In this document: positions 5,124-42,532 of the stretch, piece by piece
How positions within the stretch are numbered: position 1 is the stretch's first letter
Layout of the letters: every line of letters begins with the position of its first letter
Source of the DNA: Draconibacterium orientale
Lineage (GTDB): Bacteria > Bacteroidota > Bacteroidia > Bacteroidales > FEN-979
DNA: 64,000 bases
Direction of reading: 5' to 3'
NCBI GenBank assembly: GCA_020718225.1
Contig: DYSO01000001.1
Span: 10,968 to 74,967 of the forward strand
Translations under genes and position numbers: made by a program
The notes under the pieces: model-generated
Seen by the model: the letters and a program-made list of their open reading frames with translations, nothing else
The model's database searches: none
Told to the model about the DNA's origin: nothing

Positions 5124-5172
5124 ATAGCGAATAGTGAATAGTGAATAGTGAATAGTGAATAGTGAATATTGA
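5124..5172. repeat. 7-bp tandem array, 7 copies (ATAGCGA, ATAGTGA x5, ATATTGA)
   Basis: Counted base by base. It starts the nucleotide after the ruvB TAA and ends the nucleotide before the queG ATG. Confidence 0.97.
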
Positions 5173-6117
5173 ATGTCGAAGCTCATCGGAGAACGAGCAT
5201 TGACCGGCCATAAAGCGTTAATCCGTGAAGAAGCCCTGCGCCAGGGTTTTTTGCACTGTGGGTTTGCCCGCGCAGAACCGCCGGAAGAAATCCGTGGGTT
5301 CTATTCCAGCTACCTCGAAAAAAACAGGCAACTTTCCTTATCCTATCTGCAAAGCAACTTTGAAAAAAGGATGGACCCCTCCCTTGTTTTACCGGGGGTT
5401 AAATCCATTATTTCCCTCACCCTGGGTTATTCCGCACAGCCGCCCGTTCCTGAAAAAGATTCTTTTGTCATCGCCAAATATGCCCGTGGCGCCGATTATC
5501 ATGAAATCATGAAAAAAAAGATGGACCGGTTTATTTCATGGCTTAAAGCAGAGTTTGGGAGGGCCCGGATAAAACGGTTTGTCGATTCGGGGGCCATTCC
5601 TGAAAAATTCTGGGCCATGCGTTCCGGGGCCGGATGGCAGGGAAAAAATACCCTGATTATCCATAAGGAGGCGGGTTCCTTTTTTTTTATCGGCATCCTG
5701 CTGACCGACCTGGAACTGGAAGCCGATTCCCCGGCCACCGATCATTGCGGCCACTGTACAGAATGTATCAAAGCCTGTCCTACGGGGGCCCTCAACACGC
5801 CTTACCAGCTTGACATGTCGCGCTGTATTTCATACCACACCATCGAAAATAAAAACGCCATTCCGGAAGATATCATTCGCCATCTCGGCAACCGGATCTA
5901 TGGTTGCGACCTGTGCCAGGACGTTTGTCCCTATAACCGGGCCCCAAAACCAACAATCATTCCCGAATTCCTTCCCTCGCCGGATTTGATGAACATGGGA
6001 AAAACCGAATGGCTCAACCTGTCGGAAAAACAATTTGACCGGCTTTTCGGCCATTCTCCGGTCAAACGGATTGGATACGACCGGTTGATGAGAAATATAA
6101 ATGCCGCTTCGGGGTAA
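5173..6117 (+). CDS. queG: tRNA epoxyqueuosine(34) reductase QueG
   Basis: Two ferredoxin-type clusters, CGHCTECIKACPTGAL and GCDLCQDVCPYN. CISYHTIE is also present and length is ~314 aa. Confidence 0.92.
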   Translation: MSKLIGERALTGHKALIREEALRQGFLHCGFARAEPPEEIRGFYSSYLEKNRQLSLSYLQSNFEKRMDPSLVLPGVKSIISLTLGYSAQPPVPEKDSFVIAKYARGADYHEIMKKKMDRFISWLKAEFGRARIKRFVDSGAIPEKFWAMRSGAGWQGKNTLIIHKEAGSFFFIGILLTDLELEADSPATDHCGHCTECIKACPTGALNTPYQLDMSRCISYHTIENKNAIPEDIIRHLGNRIYGCDLCQDVCPYNRAPKPTIIPEFLPSPDLMNMGKTEWLNLSEKQFDRLFGHSPVKRIGYDRLMRNINAASG

Positions 6118-16301: not shown

Positions 16302-19300
16302 TTAAAAATCGAGGCTGAGTGAAAAATAAAAAACCGGTTTCATGATCTGGCCGTCATCAACGCCCCAGGCCAGGTCGGCCCGGATAAAATATCCGAAAAG
16401 CCGGGTCCTTGCGCCAAACCCAAAACCTTCAACAATCGGATCCTTTTGCATCTCCACTTTTATAAACAATGGGCCATTACGGACATAGCGAACAAATAAC
16501 TGGTTATCGGCCGACCAGGGAGAAGCGCCTGTCCACGCTGTACCGACATCACCGAAAAGAACAATCTGAAAATTATTAATCAGGTCGGACCGGATGGGCC
16601 GGTTGAATAAATACCGGAAAAGCGGCCAACGCAATTCGGTATTATAAACAAAAAAGCTATTCCCATTTCTGATATTTTGGGTAAAACCCCGCATGTTGGT
16701 GGCAAGTGTCTGAAATGCATAATTTTGATCTGTTGCTACCGGAATATCCATATTAAAGCGTGGAAAGAGCCAGTTATCCACTCCGCCCATATAATACAAC
16801 AGCTTGTTGCTTCCGAAAGAGGCGCTGATGGCAAATCGGTTTGCCCAGATCAATGTGCGATGGACTTTTTGATAATTGCGGAAATCCAGCCCCAGAACGA
16901 CCAGATTGTTTCCGGAGGTGTTTAACATCTGGTAATATTCACCGAAAAATTTATACCGTGTCCCCTGGTACAGGTTTACACCCAGAGAGCGGGTGTTGTC
17001 GTAATTCAATTCCCCTTTGATACTGCCCCAAACCGTATGAACGTCGGGAACTTTGAGGTTATACTGATCGGTTGATAAATAGACTGCCCTGTCATAGCGC
17101 ACAGCAGCTGTGCCTTTGATATTGAGAACCGGGTTAAACGGCCAGGTTGCCACATAATATAGTTCATGTATCTTGTGCCTTATGAGCGAATAATAGCCCC
17201 ACTCCTCAACCGCTTTCCGGTGAAAGGTGATTTGATGGTCCAGCCTTCTTTTATAAATCGAATAACTCAGAAGGTATTCATTGTTTATCAGGTTTACATT
17301 GAGCCGGACTCCTCCACTGATGCGGTAATCTTCCATCAGGTCGGTCAATCCGACCATAAACAAAGCATTCAGTCCCGGGTTGATGAAAACCGGCGAGGCG
17401 CTCCCCGTAAATGGCTGATACGCGAAATTCAGATAGGTGAAATCAATTTGGGTAACCATCTGGTCGATGGAATACTCTACGTTATAGTTTAACTGCCTGG
17501 CTGATTTATATTTATTTACCGAATCGCGTTTCCCCAAAAACAAAGAAGAAGAGGCCATCATGGAAAATGGTTCAGACGGTATTTGCTTTTTTCGTGTTGA
17601 ATCACCGATCCACTGATCGATCTGTTGAATTAAACCTGTATTTCCCGATACTGTATCTGAAAGGCGCCACTTCGGGGATATTACTTCGCTTTGCCTGACA
17701 ACAGAAAAATGTTTCCTGCGATGAACAGTAAAAGGTTCTGCAAGATGTAAGCCTGAGTCGGATTTTTTAACCTCAGCGCCGGGTACCGGGAGCGGTTTTT
17801 GATTTATCTGTAAAGGAGAGGGTTGTAATTCAATCCGGTCCACCCGGTCGGGACGGACCAGATCTTCCAGGAACATCCGGTAATTCCTGTTATTATATAT
17901 AATCTCCCCCATTTTAGCCCCTTTGACAGAGATATCCTGTTCCTCAATATTTCTTGAATAATTGGTAATCGGAAAGGTGGTTGTAAAATAACGGTAATGG
18001 GTTGCCGTGTCGATGAAAGCGATGGCGCTGTCGTATTTTCCCAGGTACCGGTTAACAATACCGTTTTGATCCCCAAGGAAACAAAAATAGTGGTCGCTAT
18101 AAGGCAGGGGTTGGGTTTCATGAACGCCGGGAGTATGGGTCAAACGGTGTAAGATATTCTGTTTATCGGCATAATTGTAAAGGAAAAGATCATTGAAATG
18201 GTGTAACTGGTCAATCTTAACCGGATCATCAAACCGGATGGTATCACTCAACCGGTTGGATGAAAAAATAATATCGCGGGAATGGTTGAAAAACCTTGGG
18301 TTTTGATCATCAAACAGGTCACGGGTAATCTGCTCATGCGAACCGGAGGCGATATTATACACAAAAATATCCGATTGCCCTTTCTGAACAGCCGAAAAGA
18401 GCAACAATGAGCCATCGTCGGAATATGAAATGTCGAGGACCTTTTGAAAATTCTCCAGAATCTGACGCGAAAAGCTTTTGTCCTCCCGATCATAAATATA
18501 GAGGCATCTTTTTCCTTTGCGCTCCACAATTAAAGAAAGGGCTTTCCCTCCGGGATGCCAGGCTATCAGTGGAAATGAATAATCGGGGCGTTCGGCCAGC
18601 CGGTAGCCTCCCCGGTAGATCCGTCTTTTTTTTCCTGTCTCCAGGTTCAACAGGAATACCTTATATATTCCGAGCTGATGGGTTGCATAAGCTACCGTTT
18701 GGCCATCTGGGCCGACTTTCAACTGATTGTACAGCCGGCCGGGCTTCTTCTTTTTATTAACCGGGATCCCCGGAGGCAAATTTCGTCCGGATTCCTGCAA
18801 TGTATATACCTCTTTGTAAAATGCCAACCATTCTGTAACAAGCGCCTGAAACGATTGTCCTGTAACATTTTGAAAACCACGTTCTACATTCCGGCTCAGA
18901 CGGGCCATATAAACAATATCGGGAATGGCCGACTCTCCATACTTTAAAGCGATGTATTTCCAGAATGAATGGCCGGCCTGGGTGGCTTCAAGACCGGTAA
19001 GACCATTAAATTTTTCATATCGGCCATTGATAATGGCATCCCTGACCAGGTTTTCCAAACCGGCATCCCATTTCCGGGATATAAATGATATCAGTCCGTT
19101 GGAATACCATTCAGGAATGGTAAAAAGCGCGTTATTCTTAATCTGTGCACCGATACCGGTCCCATACATCATGCTGTTCAGGATCACCTGTGCAATCCCG
19201 GCCCGTATCTGCTGTTCAAAATGTTCATAATCACCATCAAAAAAAAGCATTACCCTGCCCCCGATGATTTTTGTAACCCCTCCGGTATTGTAATAATCCC

Positions 19301-19667
19301 AGTCGCCGTATTGGCCGATATTGCTTTGCTTCAGATCAGAGAGGGAATTAAAAACAATAAACTGCACTTTTTCTTCAAGCGTCGACTGAAGGGTTTGTTC
19401 AATTCCGGGAATATGCTTATCCGCATATTCCGCTGTAAAAAGGGCCAGTTCCCTGCCATTCAGATAAAAATAGGTATCGAATTTTTCGAAACGGAAATGC
19501 AGCCAGAGGAAATCGTTAAACTGAACCCTGCTTTTTCCGAAAGTCAATTGCGATCCATTGTAAAACTGAGCTTCGGTTTTAAAAGAAAAATGAAGGAGAA
19601 AGAAAATGATGATCCATACCGCCGTCCAACTTTTGGATCGTCCGTTAAAGCATGCATCCTTCGTCAT
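16302..19667 (-). CDS. large outer-membrane protein: PD40/TolB-like beta-propeller repeats plus Omp85 (surface antigen D15)-type C-terminal barrel
   Basis: 1121 aa with a signal peptide. PD40-like repeats include GPDGQTVAYA...IYKVFLLNLETGK and YSDDGSLLLFSAVQKGQSDIFVYNIASG. The C-terminus GFGFGARTRLFGYFIRADLAWG...YFSLSLDF is typical of Omp85 barrels. Confidence 0.65.
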   Translation of the reverse strand: MTKDACFNGRSKSWTAVWIIIFFLLHFSFKTEAQFYNGSQLTFGKSRVQFNDFLWLHFRFEKFDTYFYLNGRELALFTAEYADKHIPGIEQTLQSTLEEKVQFIVFNSLSDLKQSNIGQYGDWDYYNTGGVTKIIGGRVMLFFDGDYEHFEQQIRAGIAQVILNSMMYGTGIGAQIKNNALFTIPEWYSNGLISFISRKWDAGLENLVRDAIINGRYEKFNGLTGLEATQAGHSFWKYIALKYGESAIPDIVYMARLSRNVERGFQNVTGQSFQALVTEWLAFYKEVYTLQESGRNLPPGIPVNKKKKPGRLYNQLKVGPDGQTVAYATHQLGIYKVFLLNLETGKKRRIYRGGYRLAERPDYSFPLIAWHPGGKALSLIVERKGKRCLYIYDREDKSFSRQILENFQKVLDISYSDDGSLLLFSAVQKGQSDIFVYNIASGSHEQITRDLFDDQNPRFFNHSRDIIFSSNRLSDTIRFDDPVKIDQLHHFNDLFLYNYADKQNILHRLTHTPGVHETQPLPYSDHYFCFLGDQNGIVNRYLGKYDSAIAFIDTATHYRYFTTTFPITNYSRNIEEQDISVKGAKMGEIIYNNRNYRMFLEDLVRPDRVDRIELQPSPLQINQKPLPVPGAEVKKSDSGLHLAEPFTVHRRKHFSVVRQSEVISPKWRLSDTVSGNTGLIQQIDQWIGDSTRKKQIPSEPFSMMASSSLFLGKRDSVNKYKSARQLNYNVEYSIDQMVTQIDFTYLNFAYQPFTGSASPVFINPGLNALFMVGLTDLMEDYRISGGVRLNVNLINNEYLLSYSIYKRRLDHQITFHRKAVEEWGYYSLIRHKIHELYYVATWPFNPVLNIKGTAAVRYDRAVYLSTDQYNLKVPDVHTVWGSIKGELNYDNTRSLGVNLYQGTRYKFFGEYYQMLNTSGNNLVVLGLDFRNYQKVHRTLIWANRFAISASFGSNKLLYYMGGVDNWLFPRFNMDIPVATDQNYAFQTLATNMRGFTQNIRNGNSFFVYNTELRWPLFRYLFNRPIRSDLINNFQIVLFGDVGTAWTGASPWSADNQLFVRYVRNGPLFIKVEMQKDPIVEGFGFGARTRLFGYFIRADLAWGVDDGQIMKPVFYFSLSLDF

Positions 19668-19748
19668 ATCCAGCAGTACAAAGCCATATAATTAGAACTG
19701 CTAAAGTACGATTATTTTCTATGCTGCAGCCATCTGGGCACATTTTCA

Positions 19749-19756
19749 TATCTTTG
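19749..19756 (+). promoter_or_regulatory. TAnnTTTG -7 box upstream of the MBL hydrolase
   Basis: tatctttg lies 27 nt upstream of ATG 19784. Confidence 0.4.
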
Positions 19757-19783
19757 CGGCCTCTGTAAAACATCGAAAAAACA

Positions 19784-20422
19784 ATGATCCATCTCCAAAA
19801 AATGACCTTTAATTCCTTTATGGTAAACACCTATTTGTTGTACGATGAAACCGGCGCATGTATCATCATCGATGCTGCCTGTTACGATGTTGAAGAACAA
19901 CAGGAAGTAAAGGATTTTTTGACAAAACATCACCTGAAACTGGTTCGTAACCTCAATACCCACTGCCATGTTGATCATGTGCTTGGAAACCCTTTTATTG
20001 CCGGTTCATTCCAGGTATTTCCCGAATATCACCAACACTCCCTTCCTTTTTTCAAGACCATCAGGGAGATTGGCTCCTCTTTCGGATACACCATCGACCA
20101 GCAGCCCGAACCTGCCCGTTTCCTGGTAGAGGATGAAACCATTCATTGGGGAAATTCATCTTTAAAAGTTCTTTTTACACCCGGTCATGCCGCCGGGAGC
20201 GTCTGTTTTTATAATGAAACCCAGGGATTTGTTATCACCGGGGATGTGTTGTTTAAAGATACCATCGGACGGACCGACCTTCCTTCGGGTGACTTCAATC
20301 AATTGATGAAAAGTATCAAAACCAAACTTTTTACCTTACCCCCCAATACCATCGTTTATCCGGGACACGGCCCTGAAACACAAATCGGGTATGAGATGGA
20401 GAATAATATGTTTATAAGGTAG
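19784..20422 (+). CDS. MBL-fold metallo-hydrolase (glyoxalase II-like)
   Basis: THCHVDHVLG (HxHxDH), TPGHAAGS and GDVLF..TIGRTDLP. Confidence 0.88.
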   Translation: MIHLQKMTFNSFMVNTYLLYDETGACIIIDAACYDVEEQQEVKDFLTKHHLKLVRNLNTHCHVDHVLGNPFIAGSFQVFPEYHQHSLPFFKTIREIGSSFGYTIDQQPEPARFLVEDETIHWGNSSLKVLFTPGHAAGSVCFYNETQGFVITGDVLFKDTIGRTDLPSGDFNQLMKSIKTKLFTLPPNTIVYPGHGPETQIGYEMENNMFIR

Positions 20423-20529
20423 CGAGGTAGCGAGGTGGCGAGGTGGCGAGGTGGCGAGGTGGCGAGGTGGCGAGGTGGCAAGGTAGCGAGGTGGCGAGGT
20501 GGCGAGGTAGCGAAATAGCGAAATAGCGA
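20418..20529. repeat. 8-bp tandem array, 14 copies (GGTAGCGA/GGTGGCGA, one GGTGGCAA, last two AATAGCGA)
   Basis: Counted base by base. The first unit contains the MBL TAG stop (20420-20422). The array ends 2 nt before ATG 20532. Confidence 0.97.
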
Positions 20530-20531
20530 AT

Positions 20532-21539
20532 ATGATTTCTTCCTTGGTAAAAATTCTTATTATCCGGTTTAGTTCCATTGGGGATATTGTTCTTACCACG
20601 CCTGTGATACGATGCCTGAAATCACAATTGCCCGGATTGGAACTTCACTATCTTACAAAAAAACAATTTCTTCCCATCCTTGAGCCGAATCCGTATATAA
20701 ATAAAGTGTGGGGTTACGATCGTAATTTTCGCGATCTGATTCCCCAATTGAAGTCCCAGGGCTTCGATTACGTTGTTGATCTGCATAAGAATTACCGGTC
20801 GGTTTTTGTTAAGCGCCAACTTCAGGTTGCTTCGGCATCTTTTCCGAAATTGAACCTTCAAAAATGGGTCACTGTCCATTTTAAAATGAATGTGATGCCC
20901 GATATCCATATTGTTGATCGGTATTTTGAGGCAGTTAAACCCCTGGGCATTCAAAATGACGCAGGGGGTCTTGATTACTTCATCCCGGCTGTGGATGAAG
21001 TTTCGCTTGCAGGTTTGCCCGCCACCCATCAAAAAGGGTTTTATGCCATAGTCATCGGAGGAAAACATAACACCAAGATCTTCCCGCCGGAGAAAATTGT
21101 CGAAGTGTGTAAAAAACTCTCACAACCGGTGGTCCTGCTTGGCGGGAATGAGGACCGGGAACGCGGGGAACAAATAGCAGAAAGGGCAGGAACACCGATT
21201 TACAATTCCTGCGGGCTGTACAACATCAGTCAGTCGGCTTCGTTCATCCGCCAGTCCAGGGCCGTACTGACAAACGATACCGGCCTGATGCATATTGCCG
21301 CTGCATTCGGCAAACACATGGTTTCGGTTTGGGGCAATACCATTCCGGCTTTTGGGATGTATCCTTACCTGCCGGAAAAATTCAAAGCAAATTCCATGAT
21401 CGCGGAGGTCAAGGGCCTTTCATGCCGCCCATGCAGCAAATTAGGGTTTAAACAATGTCCTAAAAAGCATTTTCATTGCATGATGCTGATAGATACCGAT
21501 CCGATCGTTGATTTTTTAATGCTTGATAATAAATCGTAA
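20532..21539 (+). CDS. glycosyltransferase family 9 (LPS heptosyltransferase-like)
   Basis: ILIIRFSSIGDIVLTTPVIRCLK, VVLLGG..D and TNDTGLMHIAAAFG are typical GT9 motifs. Confidence 0.88.
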   Translation: MISSLVKILIIRFSSIGDIVLTTPVIRCLKSQLPGLELHYLTKKQFLPILEPNPYINKVWGYDRNFRDLIPQLKSQGFDYVVDLHKNYRSVFVKRQLQVASASFPKLNLQKWVTVHFKMNVMPDIHIVDRYFEAVKPLGIQNDAGGLDYFIPAVDEVSLAGLPATHQKGFYAIVIGGKHNTKIFPPEKIVEVCKKLSQPVVLLGGNEDRERGEQIAERAGTPIYNSCGLYNISQSASFIRQSRAVLTNDTGLMHIAAAFGKHMVSVWGNTIPAFGMYPYLPEKFKANSMIAEVKGLSCRPCSKLGFKQCPKKHFHCMMLIDTDPIVDFLMLDNKS

Positions 21540-21652
21540 ATCGTATATCGTAAATCGTAAATCGTATATCGTAAATCGTATATCGTAAATCGTAAATCGT
21601 ATATCGTATATCGTATATCGTATATCGTAAATCGTAAATCGTAAATCGTAAA
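21534..21652. repeat. 7-bp tandem array, 17 copies (TCGTAAA/TCGTATA)
   Basis: Counted base by base. The first unit contains the GT9 TAA stop (21537-21539). The array ends 4 nt before the TTG start of tatD. Unit order by position 6 is A T A A T A T A A T T T T A A A A. Confidence 0.97.
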
Positions 21653-21656
21653 TCCA

Positions 21657-22430
21657 TTGTTCTTTTCAGATTCACATACCCATCTGTACGCCGAAGCGTT
21701 CGACAACGATCGCGAAAAAATGATGCAACGTGCTGTAAAGCAAAATATTATGCATTTTTTTCTTCCCGCCATTGATTCAACATATCATAACAGGATGCTT
21801 AAGGTTGTGGCAGACTATCCCGATACCTGTTTTCCGATGATGGGGCTGCATCCGACCTCAGTAAAAGAAAACTTTGTCAATGAGTTGGCCATCGTTGAAG
21901 GTTACCTTGCAAACCCGGAACTGAAATTCTATGCCATCGGTGAAGTCGGCATTGACCTTTACTGGGATAAAACCCATGAAGCGGAACAGCGAAAAGCATT
22001 CAACTTCCAGCTTGATCTTGCGGTAAAGTACGACCTTCCGGTGGTGATCCATACACGGAACTCGATGGACATTGCCCTGAACATGGTTGAAGACCGGGAT
22101 GATTCAAGGCTCCGGGGCGTATTTCATTGTTTCAGTGGGAATGTTGAACAAGCAAAACGGGCCATCCGACTGGGATTTATGGTTGGAATTGGTGGCGTGG
22201 TAACCTATAAGAACTCAGGCCTGCAAACTGTGGTTGAAAAAACCGCGCTTGATCACCTGCTGCTCGAGACCGATGCACCCTGGCTGCCTCCGGTTCCATA
22301 CCGCGGCCAGCGGAATGAACCAGCCTACCTTCCGCTCATCGCCCGGAAAATTGCAGAATTAAAAAAAATTTCCATGGAAGAAGTAGCCGAAAGTACTTCA
22401 CGGAATGCAACAGCGTTATTTAAACCATGA
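21657..22430 (+). CDS. tatD: TatD-family metal-dependent hydrolase/DNase
   Basis: FSDSHTHLY, GEVGIDLYW, VIHTR, HCFSG and LLLETDAPW. Only a TTG start is available (in-frame TAA 15 nt upstream). Confidence 0.9.
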   Translation: MFFSDSHTHLYAEAFDNDREKMMQRAVKQNIMHFFLPAIDSTYHNRMLKVVADYPDTCFPMMGLHPTSVKENFVNELAIVEGYLANPELKFYAIGEVGIDLYWDKTHEAEQRKAFNFQLDLAVKYDLPVVIHTRNSMDIALNMVEDRDDSRLRGVFHCFSGNVEQAKRAIRLGFMVGIGGVVTYKNSGLQTVVEKTALDHLLLETDAPWLPPVPYRGQRNEPAYLPLIARKIAELKKISMEEVAESTSRNATALFKP

Positions 22431-22507
22431 TCCTGTCGGACCACTGAACACAGACAAAGTACCAGGGTCCGGTATATATTGGTGTTTTACTGTTAAATTC
22501 GATTTTT

Positions 22508-23536
22508 ATGATTGGACAAACAAATATTTTGGTGATCTATACCGGTGGGACCATCGGCATGGTTCAGGATCCAAAAACGATGGCGCTCCGTCCGTTGAGT
22601 TTCGACATCCTCTATAAGTACCTTCCGGTTCTGGAGAATTTCAACTGCACCATCGATTTTTATACGTTTGAGCCCCTGCTGGATTCATCGAACATGAACC
22701 CTTCGTTTTACATCCATCTGGCTACTGTGATCGAAGAAAAATACGAGGATTACGATGGTTTTGTCATTCTTCACGGGTCGGATACCATGGCCTATACGGC
22801 ATCGGCTTTGAGTTTTATGCTGGAGAACCTGAACAAACCTGTAATCTTTACGGGATCTCAGTTACCCATTGGAATGGTGCGGACTGACGGCCGTGAAAAT
22901 TTTATTAATTCCATTGAAATTGCCACCGCGAAGGAGTACGATACCCCGGTGGTGCCTGAAGTTGCCATTTGTTTTGAAAACAAACTTTACAGGGGGAACC
23001 GCACCAGCAAATTCAACGCCGAACATTTCGGCGCTTTCGTTTCGGTAAATTATCCCCTGTTGGCCGAAGTCGGGGTTCATATCAAATACAATCAAAATCT
23101 GATATTGAAACCTAATTTCAAGAAATTGAAGGCCCTCAAGACCCTCGATGAAAATATCACAATCCTGAAGTTGTTTCCCGGCATATCATCTCAGGCCGTT
23201 GAGGCCATACTCCATACAAAAGATTTGAAAGCCGTTATCCTTGAAACTTTTGGATCTGGAAATGCCCCGACCATTCCCTGGTTCATTGATCATCTTCAGG
23301 ATGCCATAACACGCGGAATTATTATTTATAATGTTACACAATGCAAAGGCGGAACGGTGGAGATGGGAAAATATGAAACCAGCGCCGGACTGAATAAAAT
23401 AGGTGTTATCGGAGGTTATGACATCACCACCGAATCGGCAGTAACCAAGCTGATGTACCTGCTGGGGTCCGGTTACTCCCAGGAAAGTATAAAACAATTG
23501 CTGCAAACCTCCCTACGGGGCGAAATGACTGTTTGA
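22508..23536 (+). CDS. ansA: L-asparaginase, type I
   Basis: ILVIYTGGTIGM (active-site Thr), VILHGSDTMAYTASAL and FGSGN. Confidence 0.92.
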   Translation: MIGQTNILVIYTGGTIGMVQDPKTMALRPLSFDILYKYLPVLENFNCTIDFYTFEPLLDSSNMNPSFYIHLATVIEEKYEDYDGFVILHGSDTMAYTASALSFMLENLNKPVIFTGSQLPIGMVRTDGRENFINSIEIATAKEYDTPVVPEVAICFENKLYRGNRTSKFNAEHFGAFVSVNYPLLAEVGVHIKYNQNLILKPNFKKLKALKTLDENITILKLFPGISSQAVEAILHTKDLKAVILETFGSGNAPTIPWFIDHLQDAITRGIIIYNVTQCKGGTVEMGKYETSAGLNKIGVIGGYDITTESAVTKLMYLLGSGYSQESIKQLLQTSLRGEMTV

Positions 23537-23553
23537 GAATCCCGAACTTTTTA

Positions 23554-23561
23554 TATCTTTG
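23554..23561 (+). promoter_or_regulatory. TAnnTTTG -7 box upstream of tRNA-Ser
   Basis: tatctttg. The heptamer array begins 5 nt downstream and the tRNA 66 nt downstream. Confidence 0.4.
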
Positions 23562-23565
23562 CACA

Positions 23566-23621
23566 TCGTAAAACGTAAATCGTAAATCGTAAATCGTAAA
23601 TCGTAAATCGTAAATCGTAAA
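23566..23621. repeat. 7-bp tandem array, 8 copies (TCGTAAA, one ACGTAAA)
   Basis: Counted base by base. Same unit and orientation as 21534-21652. Ends 5 nt before tRNA-Ser. Confidence 0.97.
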
Positions 23622-23626
23622 TTCCT

Positions 23627-23714
23627 GGAGAGGTGTCCGAGTGGTCGAAGGAGCACGCCTGGAAAGTGTGTGTACGCCAAAAGTGTACCCTGGGTTCGAA
23701 TCCCAGTCTCTCCG
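23627..23714 (+). tRNA. tRNA-Ser (anticodon GGA)
   Basis: GGAGAGGTGTCCGAGTGGTCGAAGGAGCACGCCTGGAAAGTGTGTGTACGCCAAAAGTGTACCCTGGGTTCGAATCCCAGTCTCTCCG. Anticodon loop CTGGAAA, long variable arm (GTAC..GTAC) typical of class II tRNA, T-arm CTGGG/TTCGAAT/CCCAG. Confidence 0.9.
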
Positions 23715-23737
23715 CTCAGAATGAATGCTGTTTAACG

Positions 23738-23780
23738 AAAACCACTGAAAACATGGATGTTTTGGTGGTTTTTTGTTTTT
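23738..23780 (+). terminator. rho-independent terminator after tRNA-Ser
   Basis: Imperfect hairpin aaaaccactgaaaacat..atgttttggtggtttt followed by ttttgttttt. Confidence 0.55.
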
Positions 23781-24055
23781 ATTAAAAGTAACATAAAGCA
23801 TTCAAAAGTAAACTTTCAGTGGCTTATTCGGTGGACTGAATTATTTTCCCTCCAAGTCCACCGATTTAGCATATTATGCACTGATTTACACTACTTTACA
23901 TTTCATTCTTTTGCTCTTGGTATCTAATTTAGTTAACCCGGCAAATTTTCCACAGGCAGTAAGGTCAATAATTCTGAAAGCGTTCTGTTTTTTTTCTGAC
24001 GGTTTTTCTGTCGATGTTAGCCTCTCCTTAATCAGGTTGATGACCGATCAAAAAA

Positions 24056-25048
24056 ATGTATAATATTGCATTCAATGTAAATGAAAAAATCAACAAAACC
24101 ATGATCAACTGCATACATAAAATAGCTATTGCCCTGGTGGCCCTGGTCACTCGGCTATCGTTTGTTTTCTTACTTTCATTGCCCATTTTCGCCCAGCAAG
24201 TCTCAGATACGGCGTTTACTTTCCCTATCGCCCAACCAACTTACCCTCCGGGGAGCGGGCCCTTGATTCTCATTGATGAAGCCCATTTCAATTTCCACAC
24301 CCTTGGTGGTGGATTTAAACCATTTGGTAAATTGCTGTCCGGTGATGGTTTCCGGGTCGCGCCTCTTGATCAGCCAATCATCAACAGCGGAATACTGGAA
24401 GGATGTTCCATTCTGGTTATCGCCAATGCCCTCAACGAATCCAATCAACAAAACTGGTTCATGCCAACCCCATCAGCCTTTGCTGCCAGTGAGATTGAGG
24501 TCATTCGTTCATGGGTGGCACAGGGTGGCTCTCTGTTTCTCATTGCGGATCATATGCCATTCGCAGGCGCAGCAAAAAATCTGGGAGCAGCCTTTGGATT
24601 TGATTGGCTCAACGGGTTTGCATTTACCCGGCCCCGGACCTGGCCTCCTTCTGTATTTAAGAAGAGCGACAAGACTTTGGATTCCGGTCCGGTAACCTCT
24701 TCAAATTTCGGTATGCACCCCATTGATTCGGTGATCACCTTTACTGGCTCAGCCTTTCGCATCCCTCCGGATGCCATCCCGGTATTGGTGTTTCATCCGG
24801 ATCACTACTCTCTTCAACCGGATACTGCCTGGCGTTTCACACCAGAAACACCCCGTCAATCCCTTGCGGGATATTACCAGGGGGCCCTGCTGGAGTATGA
24901 CAAAGGTCGTATTGCGGTATTCGGCGAAGCGGCGATGTTTACGGCCCAGATTGCAAACGGCATCCTCAAAGCCGGGTTCAATTCCGAAACAGCTCCGCAG
25001 AATGCCATATTCCTGCTAAACGTGATGCATTGGCTAAGTGGTAAGTGA
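24056..25048 (+). CDS. secreted hypothetical protein (DUF4350/GATase1-like fold suspected)
   Basis: TM/signal segment IAIALVALVTRLSFVFLLSLPIFAQ. LILIDEAHFNFH...ILVIANAL...GGSLFLIADH resembles the DUF4350/ThuA-like layout. The assignment is tentative. Confidence 0.45.
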   Translation: MYNIAFNVNEKINKTMINCIHKIAIALVALVTRLSFVFLLSLPIFAQQVSDTAFTFPIAQPTYPPGSGPLILIDEAHFNFHTLGGGFKPFGKLLSGDGFRVAPLDQPIINSGILEGCSILVIANALNESNQQNWFMPTPSAFAASEIEVIRSWVAQGGSLFLIADHMPFAGAAKNLGAAFGFDWLNGFAFTRPRTWPPSVFKKSDKTLDSGPVTSSNFGMHPIDSVITFTGSAFRIPPDAIPVLVFHPDHYSLQPDTAWRFTPETPRQSLAGYYQGALLEYDKGRIAVFGEAAMFTAQIANGILKAGFNSETAPQNAIFLLNVMHWLSGK

Positions 25049-25926: not shown

Positions 25927-26760
25927 ATGAAAGAAAGAATCCTGATCATTGGGGCAACCGGCATGCTGGCCAGGCCTGTTGCACGCAAACTGAAAGATGA
26001 CGGCAATATCGTCAGGCTTTTCTCCCGTTCCGTATCGGAAAAGGAGGAAAAGGAGGGATACGAGATCTCCAAAGGGGATTTTTTCAACCCCTCCGATCTT
26101 GAAAAAGCCATGAAAGATTGCCGCCATGTTCACACCAACCTGGCTAAGGTAGATGAAGGGGTCGTCATGAAGGGGATCGTGGAAGCGGCGAAAAAGGCAG
26201 GCATCCAGACCCTCTCCTGCATCTCCGGGGCCTCCGTATGTGAAGAAAACCGGTGGTTTTACGGCACCGAAAGGAAATACCAGGCCGAACAGGCGGTGAT
26301 CCAAAGTGGTATCCCCTATATGATTTTCCGCCCATCCTGGTTCTTTGAATCACTTGAAATGATGGTCAGGGGAGGCAAGGCCATGATGATCGGTAAACAA
26401 CCTCATCCTTACCGCTGGGTGGCCTCCGACGACTACGGCCGGATGGTGGCAACCGCCTATGCTAAACCCGAAGCCCGGAACCGGATCTTTTACGTTCTTG
26501 GGCCGGAGTATCATAAAATGCGGGACCTTCTGGTCAATTATGTGAAGGCTGTACACCCGGAGATAAAAAAGGTATCGGATGTGCCGTTGTGGATGATGAA
26601 GCTGATCGGGCTGGTGTCGGGAAAAATGGATATCAAAGGGGTTGCCGATCTTTACGGATATTTCGAGAAGGCTCGTGAACAGGGAGATCCGGCCATGACC
26701 AATGAGTTGCTTGGGAAACCCGAAATCACTTTTGAACAGTGGGTGAAGGGAAAGAATTAA
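25927..26760 (+). CDS. NAD(P)H-binding NmrA/SDR-family protein
   Basis: Rossmann motif ILIIGATGMLARPVARKL. Length ~277 aa. Start taken at ATG 25927. Confidence 0.8.
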   Translation: MKERILIIGATGMLARPVARKLKDDGNIVRLFSRSVSEKEEKEGYEISKGDFFNPSDLEKAMKDCRHVHTNLAKVDEGVVMKGIVEAAKKAGIQTLSCISGASVCEENRWFYGTERKYQAEQAVIQSGIPYMIFRPSWFFESLEMMVRGGKAMMIGKQPHPYRWVASDDYGRMVATAYAKPEARNRIFYVLGPEYHKMRDLLVNYVKAVHPEIKKVSDVPLWMMKLIGLVSGKMDIKGVADLYGYFEKAREQGDPAMTNELLGKPEITFEQWVKGKN

Positions 26761-26770
26761 AAATTTAAAA

Positions 26771-26784
26771 ATTACGAATTACGA
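26771..26784. repeat. 7-bp unit ATTACGA x2 abutting the AraC start codon
   Basis: attacgaattacga is immediately followed by ATG 26785. The unit is close to the reverse complement of TCGTAAA/TCGTAAT. Confidence 0.6.
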
Positions 26785-27759
26785 ATGATCAAATCCGAAT
26801 ACCTTTCCCGTATCAACCGCGTGATGGATTATATCGAATCCAGGCTGGGAGAGACGCATACCCTCGAAGAGCTTGCCTCCGTGGCAAATTTCTCAAGGTT
26901 CCATTTTCACCGGATCTTCACCGCCATGACCGGCGAAACTCCTTTTCAGTTTTTGACCCGGCTGAGGATTGAAAAATCGGCAAACCTTCTTGTTAACAAC
27001 CCAGCCATTACCATCAGCGAAGTGGCTTTTCAATGTGGTTTTTCGAGTTTAGCGCTCTTTTCGAGAACTTTCCGGCAGACCTTCGATGCCTCTCCCAGCG
27101 CCTGGAGGCATAGCGGCTGTTCTTCCGGAAACGGATTGAAAAAGAGCGTCAGCAACCAGAGAAAAACAAATAGCAATCTGGGTCAAACGCTCAGCAATGA
27201 CAGAAAAAGCGGGACGGATTCCTCCATGTATTTTTGCCGGGAAACAAAAACCTTTAAATGGAGGACAACCATGAAACTGAACAAAAGTATGGAAGTAAAA
27301 CAGCTTCCGAAGATGACAGTGGCCTACCTGCGCCACACCGGCCCTTACCAGGGCAACGAAAAGCTATTTCAAAACCTGACAGAAGAACTCTGCCGATGGG
27401 CCGGGCCGCGGGGATTGCTGGCACAACCGGATATGAAATTGCTGGTAGTCTATCACGACGATCCCAAGGTGACCGAACAGGACAAACTCCGGCTGAGCAT
27501 GTGCCTGACCGTTCCGGGGCAGACCAAAGTGGATGGTAAGATCGGGAAAATGGAGATTGCAGCCGGAACCTATGCGGTGGGACGATTCGAAGTGAATAGC
27601 CAGGAATTCGGTGAAGCCTGGGACTGGCTTTATGGCACATGGCTCCCACAAAGCGGTTATCAGCCTGACGACGGCCCCTGCTTTGAGGTCTATCCCGAAG
27701 AACCTAAAGAGGGTGAAAAAATCAAAGTGGATATCTGCGTGCCGGTGAAACCGATGTAA
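26785..27759 (+). CDS. AraC-family transcriptional regulator with GyrI-like effector domain
   Basis: HTH_18 region LEELASVANFSRFHFHRIFTAMTGETPFQFLTRLRIEKSANLL...CGFSSLALFSRTFRQTF. The C-terminal ~160 aa (VAYLRHTGPY...FEVY) is GyrI/SbmC-like. Confidence 0.9.
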   Translation: MIKSEYLSRINRVMDYIESRLGETHTLEELASVANFSRFHFHRIFTAMTGETPFQFLTRLRIEKSANLLVNNPAITISEVAFQCGFSSLALFSRTFRQTFDASPSAWRHSGCSSGNGLKKSVSNQRKTNSNLGQTLSNDRKSGTDSSMYFCRETKTFKWRTTMKLNKSMEVKQLPKMTVAYLRHTGPYQGNEKLFQNLTEELCRWAGPRGLLAQPDMKLLVVYHDDPKVTEQDKLRLSMCLTVPGQTKVDGKIGKMEIAAGTYAVGRFEVNSQEFGEAWDWLYGTWLPQSGYQPDDGPCFEVYPEEPKEGEKIKVDICVPVKPM

Positions 27760-37177: not shown

Positions 37178-37459
37178 AATATTGAGCCCACTCCGAAAAG
37201 TATTTTTTTTACGACATCGACACAATCATTACGCTATTGCTTGGGACATCGGGCCCCATCCCCCCGGCCCCCTTCCCCAAAAAGGGAAGGGGGCGGGTTG
37301 TGCTAATAATTCATAACGCTGTTAATCAAAGTGTTAGATTGATTAGAACACACCTCCCCTCCATTTTTGGGGAGGGGCCGGGGGTGGGGTACAATAAAGG
37401 ACGATATGATAAATAGCATACCATTATTTGTTTTGCCTTTTCGGAGGGGACTCAATATT
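37178..37459. mobile_element. 282-bp nested imperfect palindrome (MITE-like element)
   Basis: Outer inverted repeat aatattgagcccactccgaaaag (37178-37200) versus cttttcggaggggactcaatatt (37437-37459), 21/23 complementary. Inner GC-rich inverted repeat ccccatccccccggcccc (37254-37271) versus ggggccgggggtgggg (37374-37389). Local hairpins at 37268-37293 and 37353-37375. All share the same symmetry centre near 37320. Confidence 0.5.
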
Positions 37460-41150: not shown

Positions 41151-42392
41151 ATGAAAAAATTCATTTTTACGATTGCCGCGCTGATCGTGGCCGCCACGGT
41201 ACACGCTCAGCAACCGAAGACCCCCGGGGTCATGAAAGAAGGGAAACCCGGGTATTTCCAGAACACCATCATGAAGGACATCCGGGCGGTGGATGAAGGC
41301 GCCGAACCCGCAAAAAAGGAGAAGCGATTCCAGGCCGACCTCAGCGGGATGAGCTTTCCGAACAAGGTGAACCTGTATCAATCCGAATGGCGCCTGCCGC
41401 CGGTATCACAGGGAAACACCAACACCTGCTGGTGCTTTTCAACCACCTCCTTTTTTGAATCGGAAGTACACCGGCTCACCGGAAAAGAGGTCAAACTTTC
41501 GGAGATGTTCACGGTTTACTGGGAATATGTGGAACGCGCCAAACGATTTGTTGCGGAAAGGGGAAATTCGGCTTTTTCCGAAGGTTCCGAGGCCAATGCC
41601 GTGATCCGCGAGTACAAAAAATATGGGATCGTCCCGAAGGAAGTTTACAGCGGAATGGAAGCCGGGCGTAAATTCTTTACCCATGAGAAAATGTTCGGGG
41701 AACTGAGCCGGTACATGGAGGGGGTGAAGAACGCCAATGCCTGGAACGAAGAGGAAGTCGTGGCAACCGTGAAAAGCATTCTGAACCATTACATGGGCAT
41801 ACCCCCCGAATCATTCGAATGGAAAGGGACGAAATATACCCCCAAAGAATTCCTTTCCGATTATCTCAAACTGCAGATGGATGATTACGTGGATATTACT
41901 TCATACCTACAGCAGCCATTCTGGCAGAAAGTGGAATATGAAGTGCCCGACAACTGGTGGCACAGCAAGGATTATTATAATGTTCCCCTGGAGGATTACA
42001 TGAATGCCATTAAAAATGCGATCCGTAACCATTACACCCTGGTGATTGGCGGAGATGTTTCGGAAGCCGGATTCAACCGTGAAGCGCAGGTAGCGCTGGT
42101 CCCGGGCTTTGATATTGCCGTTGCCGACATCGACGATAACGCACGACAGTTCAGGTTTTCCAATTCCACCACCACCGACGATCACGGCCTGCACCTGGTG
42201 GGCTGGTACGAAAAGGACGGTACCGACTGGTATCTTATCAAGGATTCCGGTTCAGGATCTCGGAACAACGACGAAACCTCCCCTGAGTTTGGCTACTATT
42301 TTTTCAGGGGCGATTACATAAGGCTGAAGATGATGGATATCCTGGTACATAAGGATGCCGTGAAGGATCTGCTTCAGAAGTGCGGGAAGTGA
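41151..42392 (+). CDS. C1-family cysteine peptidase (aminopeptidase C / bleomycin hydrolase-like), secreted
   Basis: Signal peptide MKKFIFTIAALIVAATVHAQ. Active-site context QGNTNTCWCFSTTSFFESE and a later H (DDHGLHLVGW) fit the C1B arrangement. Confidence 0.82.
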   Translation: MKKFIFTIAALIVAATVHAQQPKTPGVMKEGKPGYFQNTIMKDIRAVDEGAEPAKKEKRFQADLSGMSFPNKVNLYQSEWRLPPVSQGNTNTCWCFSTTSFFESEVHRLTGKEVKLSEMFTVYWEYVERAKRFVAERGNSAFSEGSEANAVIREYKKYGIVPKEVYSGMEAGRKFFTHEKMFGELSRYMEGVKNANAWNEEEVVATVKSILNHYMGIPPESFEWKGTKYTPKEFLSDYLKLQMDDYVDITSYLQQPFWQKVEYEVPDNWWHSKDYYNVPLEDYMNAIKNAIRNHYTLVIGGDVSEAGFNREAQVALVPGFDIAVADIDDNARQFRFSNSTTTDDHGLHLVGWYEKDGTDWYLIKDSGSGSRNNDETSPEFGYYFFRGDYIRLKMMDILVHKDAVKDLLQKCGK

Positions 42393-42532
42393 ATACCGGG
42401 TGGCGATAGGCGATAGTCCTTCATCTGCGTGAACCCGGATTGGAGGTCGATCCTGAACTGTTCATAAAAACATAGCTGTTATCTGATGAATTATTCGTTT
42501 TAAAAAGCACTTTTGATGCGTAAAAGAATTTT

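Follow-up and report, generated by a model that had tools for sequence, protein, structure and literature searches.

The stretch analysed here, 64,000 nucleotides (nt) of contig DYSO01000001.1 (assembly GCA_020718225.1) and called the window in what follows, carries an array of 8-nt direct repeats between a gene for an MBL-fold hydrolase and a gene for a GT9-family glycosyltransferase (MBL and GT9 below). This array is probably a slippage-expanded intercistronic repeat of the long simple sequence repeat (LSSR) class, which acts passively or, at most, modulates GT9 translation by degrees; co-transcription of the genes, slippage and the effect on translation are the parts of this reading that we infer. 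An on/off switch, or phase variation of lipopolysaccharide (LPS), is not supported. The host is an uncultured Bacteroidales bacterium; the best species-representative matches to its GT9 protein were metagenome-assembled genomes (MAGs) at no more than 69% identity.

The array occupies positions 20418-20529 of the + strand (112 bp), as 14 head-to-tail units of 8 bp. Twelve units of the types GGTAGCGA (units 1, 2, 9 and 12), GGTGGCGA (units 3-7, 10 and 11) and GGTGGCAA (unit 8) are followed by two AATAGCGA units, 13 and 14, nearest the GT9 ATG. All differences between units are G<->A transitions. A sequence-only reading of this DNA had described 14 units of GGTRGCGA; the array, its span and the unit number hold, while only 11 of the 14 units fit this consensus exactly, the rest being the single GGTGGCAA and the two AATAGCGA. 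The same reading had correctly placed the TAG stop of MBL (20420-20422) in unit 1, and the end of the array 2 nt ('AT') before the GT9 ATG at 20532. The whole intercistronic spacer consists of the array, with 109 nt from the MBL stop to the GT9 start. Tandem Repeats Finder (TRF) scored it at 159 and 46, and the dimer pattern GGTRGCGAGGTRGCGA, with at most one mismatch, was matched 11 times against 0.00 expected from 100 dinucleotide shuffles, so that an 8-nt unit in 14 copies lies far beyond chance and within the 5-11 nt range of LSSR units. The units at the 3′ end, of AA type, are the most diverged and those in the middle, of GG type, are identical, a polarity which fits ongoing internal slippage.

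Logan contigs of two independent runs reached into the array from unique sequence at either end, and an NCBI MAG contig (GCA_973786475.1) was 100% identical over 11 kb. Short-read (Logan) contigs L002, L003, L005 and L006 stopped inside arrays on both sides of GT9, as is expected when such repeats are assembled by de Bruijn graphs. That arrays are break points of short-read assemblies is the one observation that would speak for an artefact of assembly or sequencing. Such an artefact has a negligible probability and was ruled out, given the recovery of the same array in independent assemblies and runs and the presence of homologous arrays in at least six other lineages from different projects. 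Arrays of this kind account for the fragmentation of short-read assemblies at gene boundaries in these organisms. Many GT9 homologues in the protein database lie on contigs of ~1.0-1.4 kb, scarcely exceeding the length of the gene, which suggests that repeat-flanked GT9 genes are common in the clade. A minus-strand open reading frame (ORF) running through the array (20336-20599, 87 aa) was discarded, as the product expected of a stop-free repeat.

Unit number at the MBL>GT9 junction was polymorphic among close relatives. An invariant length had been named by the sequence-only reading as evidence that would speak against its proposal, and this is not what was found: besides the 14 units of the window, one fewer was present in run SRR17737360, 10 in a relative at ~95% identity and 12 in one at 82%. 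The first of these (L003, identical protein, ~100%) lacks one GGTGGCGA unit between units 9 and 12, and is a real allele, because its junction k-mers cannot come from the 14-unit allele. The second (L067, 95% protein and ~95% nt identity) has its 10 units from stop to start, and its downstream CGTAAAT array counts ~5-6 units versus 17 in the window. In the third (L068-70), the 3′-most units are again diverged (AATTGTGA AATAGTGA AATAGAGG), and all three assemblies agree. Further away, GGTAGCGA/AATAGCGA units were found in five copies in L007 (69%) and in four in L064-66 (71%), AATGGTGA x3 (3-4 units) in L008 (68%), where the GT9 ATG falls within the last unit, and AATGGMGA in about nine copies in L012 (64%). 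The 24-nt spacer of L074-76 (72%), identical in three samples, is made of three degenerate octamers (AATGGTGA AAAGGTGA AATGATAA) and looks like the unexpanded state. The 19-nt spacer of L071-73 (73%), cccgtgaaaggacaaaagc, holds no array, no array was found at this junction in L009 and L013, and in L027 the MBL stop and GT9 start overlap (ATGA). L010 and L011, which are 91% identical, have wholly different spacers. Across ~0.9 Mb of related sequence, 2.5 or more consecutive RRTRGNGA units occurred nowhere but at the MBL>GT9 junction, always in sense orientation and beginning in the MBL stop codon. The GGTGGCGA unit is a recent variant, confined to the window and L067. Individual arrays thus turn over fast, yet the octamer family is retained across lineages only 64-71% identical in GT9.

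A search of JGI metagenomes with anchored patterns, for further alleles of the window species, recovered only the L007-like species. In the latter, a second array lies between the octamer array and GT9, made of NYTTTGA heptamers with a higher-order unit of ~53 nt. It counts 21.7 copies in L064 (5780-5930) and L066 (5345-5495) versus 7.7 in L065 (8415-8467), a difference between sibling metagenomes which could be a polymorphism or an assembly collapse.

The gene string around the array lies entirely on the + strand. A Bacteroidetes-type -7 promoter box, TATCTTTG (pattern TAnnTTTG, 19749-19756), is placed 28 nt upstream of the ATG of MBL (19784-20422, 212 aa, GloB-like, PF00753). GT9 follows (20532-21539, 335 aa, PF01075), then TatD, a TatD-family hydrolase gene (21657-22430), and an asparaginase gene (22508-23536), the last protein gene of the string. 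Between GT9 and TatD, a second array of 17 CGTAAAT/CGTATAT heptamers (21535-21653) holds the TAA stop of GT9 and ends 3 nt before the TTG start of TatD. A further -7 box, also TATCTTTG (23554-23561), stands directly upstream of eight CGTAAAT units (23567-23622) in the predicted 5′ leader of tRNA-Ser(GGA) (23627-23715). The GT9 protein scored 104 bits with the NCBIfam heptosyltransferase I model, below its cut-off of 185, so that 'heptosyltransferase' is a label at family level only. The MBL-GT9-TatD-asparaginase string is conserved across Bacteroidota with GT9 as a syntenic member, and GT9 is a conserved core gene rather than an accessory contingency gene.

A pattern search of the + strand placed the next TAnnTTTG box after 19749 at 22663, inside the asparaginase gene, and then at 23554 before the tRNA, with none between 19757 and 22663. 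No sigma-70-like or terminator-like site was found within the arrays, and no Rfam family in the octamer array, the tRNA being the sole Rfam pass in 19000-25000. A promoter inside the octamer array, an intrinsic terminator in the arrays and a known RNA family for the octamer array were discarded on these grounds. Since the only -7 box lies upstream of MBL, and since neither promoter, terminator nor Rfam match was found in the array, we read MBL, GT9 and TatD as most likely one transcription unit, in which the array would be an intercistronic stretch of mRNA. Bacteroidia ribosomes disregard Shine-Dalgarno (SD) sequences (PMC7797042, PMC6847099), and initiation in Bacteroidetes relies instead on low structure and upstream A residues (PMC6847099). 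The GAGGU motifs formed at each unit junction should for this reason be inert, and an SD role was rejected, the last GAGGU being moreover 23 nt from the ATG. At the least, initiation at GT9, which needs low structure and upstream adenines, can be reconciled with a purine-rich spacer free of structure.

The RNA of the array is indeed predicted to be little structured. Its minimum free energy (MFE) was -25.8 kcal/mol, versus -22.7 +/- 2.1 for shuffled sequences (z -1.5), and its centroid was unpaired, which led us to discard a stable RNA structure; the heptamer arrays of the window were likewise unstructured. No inverted repeat partner was found within 600 nt, nor any reverse-complement match of at least 8 nt within +/-1.5 kb. 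The best partner in an RNA duplex scan of the window, at 22231-22300 inside TatD, reached z -1.8 relative to its own shuffles and lay in a continuous tail, and the scan was driven by composition. A complementary arm, or a hairpin of the type known from the hmw genes of Haemophilus influenzae, was ruled out for the window array by these results. Such pairing of complementary arrays does occur in relatives. In L079 and L080, complementary array pairs are present at all three junctions of the MBL-GT9-TatD-AnsA string (L079 1343-1500, 2518-2703 and 3481-3622), identical in the two samples; one example, (CGCAGAGA)3...(TCTCTGCG)3, folds at -59.2 kcal/mol (z -11.4). In L012 (9776-10000), the homologue of the octamer array is the 5′ arm of a hairpin of -55.9 kcal/mol, with TTTCGCT heptamers arrayed as its 3′ arm, and a similar design in L010 (9901-10000) folds at -36.9 kcal/mol. 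For these complementary-array spacers, a role as signals for processing or stability is possible, or else an origin as small palindromic mobile elements.

Nor is the octamer array specific to GT9, as similar arrays lie at the RuvB>QueG, GT9>TatD and promoter>tRNA-Ser junctions. TRF detected four long short-unit arrays in the 64-kb window, all intergenic, all at co-directional junctions (4 of 19 '++' junctions and 0 of the 36 others) and of only two unit families, TAG[CT]GA-type and CGTAWAT; several non-coding arrays with few unit families in one genome are again what is described for LSSRs. Two of the four had been missed by the sequence-only reading, namely the one in the tRNA-Ser leader and that between the RuvB stop and the QueG start (5125-5173, +; seven TAGTGAA units, the first being TAGCGAA), whose units form a family sister to that of the octamer array's 3′ units. 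Three of the four cluster in the string from MBL to tRNA-Ser, and GT9 is, as that reading had stated, the sole gene of the window bracketed by two long arrays, according to TRF and a survey of junctions. Two mini-arrays, AATTACG x2.4 (26757-26786), which abuts an ATG at 26785, and GGCGATA x2.1 (42399-42416), which begins 7 nt past a stop at 42392, may belong to this class too, as nascent or decayed arrays.

Among 57 related loci, arrays of 7-8-nt units were frequent in a subset of genomes, often a few nt from a stop and/or a start codon and mostly outside ORFs (54 of 63 by crude ORF calls). With the same calls, arrays were found at 33 of 468 co-directional and 13 of 239 convergent or divergent junctions; there was no clear difference, and an enrichment at co-directional junctions across relatives was dropped. 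In 21 kb of a cultured member of the Chitinophagaceae, Pollutibacter soli (L030), seven heptamer arrays of the AACGTTN type were present, both GT9 flanks being among their sites, so that the array class is widespread but patchy in Bacteroidota. The tRNA leaders of L064-66, L012 and L010 carry CGTAAAT-type repeats as in the window, that of L008 has antisense AATGGYGA octamers, and that of L067 (~95%) has AGTGAAN...TTCACTT inverted repeats in place of CGTAAAT. In L071, the TatD>asparaginase junction (5867-5981) holds ACAGGCGG x9.2 followed by CACTTAA x4.7; no array was found at this junction in the window (22431-22507). Arrays thus appear to move between the junctions of the string.

A short purine-rich ancestral spacer of ~19-24 nt with an 8-nt quasi-period, as in the L074/L071 state, would be the probable source of the RRTRGYGA family. 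Slipped-strand mispairing would then have expanded, contracted and homogenised the units independently in each lineage, as part of a population of 7-8-nt arrays found throughout the lineage at transcribed junctions, in gene gaps as well as in a tRNA leader. The exact fit from stop to start follows from the tiny size of the original gap, as an expanded array fills it entirely. In the mRNA, the array would be a purine-rich stretch without stable pairing and without promoter, terminator or SD function, and the distance of 109 nt between stop and start, instead of ~0-24 nt, may shift translational coupling, and with it GT9 output, by degrees.

Some observations do not sit easily with slippage as the whole explanation. 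The octamer array persists, with the same period and related units, at a junction where GT9 is only 64-71% identical; this exceeds the expectation for useless bacterial DNA, and selection for some function is for that reason open to consideration. The units belong to a small number of families that recur from locus to locus and from species to species, with CGTAAAT at several junctions, which hints at a sequence-specific constraint. The hairpin spacers of L079, L012 and L010 suggest that at least some of the elements are structured RNA or DNA signals. The persistence of arrays and of their hairpin relatives at the same operon junctions over long divergence is the residual puzzle.

Phase variation of LPS or lipooligosaccharide (LOS) had been suggested by the sequence-only reading, and here the comparison with classical contingency loci is instructive. 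These are homopolymer or tetranucleotide simple sequence repeats in LOS/LPS glycosyltransferase genes of Haemophilus, Neisseria, Campylobacter and Helicobacter, which toggle expression by frameshift when they lie inside the ORF, or by spacing when they separate the -35 from the -10 element. The octamer array resembles them in being a slippage-prone repeat of variable unit number that adjoins a gene of a glycosyltransferase family. It differs in its intercistronic position, its 8-nt unit and the absence of a nearby promoter. The array cannot frameshift, because its 8-nt unit lies outside the ORF, and switching by promoter spacing is unavailable, because the string has its only -7 box before MBL, at 19749. 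Whatever effect the repeat has must come through the mRNA or translation, since it lies, as had been rightly pointed out, outside the ORFs, between the MBL stop and the GT9 ATG. Nor are the arrays concentrated on genes for surface structures or host interaction: like arrays flank housekeeping genes (RuvB/QueG, TatD, asparaginase/tRNA-Ser) and many junctions of relatives, and GT9 itself is conserved, syntenic and below the heptosyltransferase cut-off. The proposal of LPS/LOS phase variation is thus not supported, and the case calls for caution, in that a repeat beside a glycosyltransferase gene is not to be taken as phase variation.

A softer version, in which gain or loss of units heritably alters GT9 output through the length or structure of the leader, so that the array is a tuning knob for graded phase variation, would be in keeping with the difference in array length between near-identical and closely related strains, with an array that directly abuts the GT9 start, with the arrays on both GT9 flanks in the window, L007, L008 and L067, and with the precedent of hmw1 in Haemophilus influenzae (PMC12721329). 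We nevertheless regard it as unlikely: hmw needs a long hairpin and RNase III, and the window array has neither a complementary partner nor a significant fold; equivalent arrays stand beside housekeeping genes and a tRNA, with GT9 a conserved core gene; and spacers were invariant across samples in L074-76 (three samples), L079/L080 (two) and the 12-unit L068-70 (three assemblies). Another possibility is that RRURGYGA and CGUAAAU arrays are selected cis-acting RNA elements, multivalent platforms for an RNA-binding protein of the S1, Csp or RRM type, whose binding would control how the downstream cistron is translated, processed or stabilised in a bacterium that does without SD. This would fit the lasting presence of the octamers at an orthologous junction, where period, strand and motif core are conserved, as well as the few unit families common to loci and species and the arrays abutting start codons. 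A similar role has been put forward for the TAACTGA repeats that precede start codons in Beggiatoaceae (PMC4679880). Set against this are the absence or replacement of the array in interleaved lineages (L071, 73%; L009, 66%; L010/L011, 91% identical to each other), the swap of the tRNA-leader array for another unit at ~95% identity, the occurrence of units in both sense and antisense orientations in the survey with crude gene calls, and the lack of a candidate binding protein, which together make both the binding platform and the control it would exert quite improbable.

The sequence-only reading had also raised G-quadruplex (G4) formation. A two-tetrad G4 (GG-U-GG-CGA-GG-U-GG), in the mRNA or in the non-template DNA, would then impede ribosomes or polymerase upstream of GT9. 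The array does contain 17 overlapping G2-type G4 motifs, ViennaRNA run with G-quadruplexes placed two-layer G4s in the MFE structure, and in position and strand the array matches the GGGNATC repeats that form G4s in Xanthomonas and Nostoc (PMC4692102). The weak two-layer prediction is as far as the idea held, since the tracts are GG only, the gain was 3.9 kcal/mol over 112 nt, and G4Hunter gave a mean of 0.76 and a maximum of 1.04, below the usual threshold of 1.2. Moreover, no G4 was predicted in the orthologous arrays of GGTAGCGA, AATGGTGA or AATGGMGA units, the two units next to the ATG are AATAGCGA, and the G4-capable GGTGGCGA is the recent variant restricted to the window and L067. A strong G4 was rejected, and a regulatory G4 is in our opinion very unlikely.

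A broader and bolder view, which we hold to be doubtful, is that 7-8-nt arrays and complementary-array hairpins together are selected, evolvable elements of intercistronic control in SD-less Bacteroidales. If so, translational coupling, processing or stability would be set by these elements, both from one cistron to the next and within tRNA leaders; selection would keep them at orthologous junctions over genus-to-family divergence, and slippage would let operon stoichiometry be retuned heritably and by degrees. Seen this way, the MBL>GT9 array would represent one allele of a natural series of 0, 3, 4, 5, 9, 10, 12, 13 and 14 units. Whatever the standing of this view, the junction can be traced from an overlapping stop and start, through a spacer of 19-24 nt, to 3 to 14 units, and to hairpins in sister lineages. 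As such, the series offers concrete constructs for telling neutral slippage from translation tuning in bacteria without SD recognition.

Some further observations concern the surroundings of the string and the distribution of its repeats. A divergent ORF upstream of MBL (16302-19667, - strand, 1121 aa), conserved in all close relatives, gave only weak matches to Tricorn_N, Tricorn_2nd and PD40. In the 82% relative, a tyrosine integrase gene (Arm-DNA-bind_5/Phage_integrase; L068 7526-8752, L069 7526-8779) lies just downstream of tRNA-Ser, implying an integrated element at this tRNA; its counterpart in the window, the ORF 24056-25048, had no Pfam or NCBIfam match. A mobile or viral origin of the octamer was discarded, (GGTGGCGA)3 giving 0 hits in IMG/VR. 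In the same database, (CGTAAAT)x4 or longer was found in 11 viral contigs (L081-L091), of which three are giant-virus MAG contigs, one with a 112-bp run; these contigs are of mixed kinds and uninformative. Between two convergent genes of the window, the region 37250-37395 holds two G/C-rich hairpins (ccccttccccaaaaagggaaggggg and cctcccctccatttttggggagggg), probably bidirectional terminators, and includes the window's only canonical GGG-type G4 motif, at 37369.

Short tandemly repeated repetitive (STRR) sequences have been known since ~1990 and LSSRs since 2007, and the octamer array is best filed as a further member of the LSSR class. In the summary given in PMC4679880 of the work of Mrazek, Guo and Shah (2007), LSSRs are arrays of 5-11-nt units, dominated by heptamers and ascribed to polymerase slippage. 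Going by that summary, the likeness to LSSRs and to cyanobacterial STRRs extends to 7-8-nt direct repeats present many times per genome, overwhelmingly non-coding, in lineage-specific unit families of sporadic phylogeny and with slippage as the assumed generator. What differs here is the uncultured Bacteroidales host, the 8-nt unit, the filling of the complete gap from stop to start, and the possibility of following the array at a single orthologous junction through lineages of 64 to 95% protein identity. The TAACTGA heptamers described in 2015 from Beggiatoaceae, cyanobacteria and five Bacteroidetes, where they closely precede start codons (MacGregor 2015, PMC4679880), are likewise short direct repeats in 'forward' orientation a few nt from starts, with long arrays in some Bacteroidetes and other heptamer arrays in the same spacers (PMC4679880); their unit is unrelated in sequence, and neither an alternate RpoC nor another linked gene was seen here.

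The GGGNATC repeats of Xanthomonas and Nostoc lie by preference between aligned ORFs on the coding strand, overlap stops and show no particular link to surface genes (Rehm et al. 2015, PMC4692102), for which reason their authors held phase variation to be unlikely (PMC4692102). The octamer array shares this layout, with a G-rich coding strand between aligned ORFs, a position 0-50 bp from or over the upstream stop, and a variable unit number. It differs by its GG tracts, 14 units, sub-threshold G4 scores and lack of predicted G4 in orthologs, whereas the GGGNATC repeats have GGG tracts, a preference for four units and evidence for G4 from circular dichroism (PMC4692102). Finally, in the 5′ untranslated region of hmw1 in Haemophilus influenzae, expression falls as the number of (ATCTTTC)n repeats rises (PMC12721329), the heptamer array pairing with a G-rich arm and being cut by RNase III (PMC12721329). 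Here too, a transcribed array of 7-8-nt units of strain-variable length precedes a gene, as in hmw1A and hmw2A, and effects would be graded. The hmw array, however, follows its own promoter and forms a hairpin of ~10 repeats with its complementary G-rich arm, whereas the octamer array lies between two cistrons and has no such arm; inverted-array hairpins of broadly this design, in which the repeat does pair with a complementary arm, occur in its relatives L079, L012 and L010.

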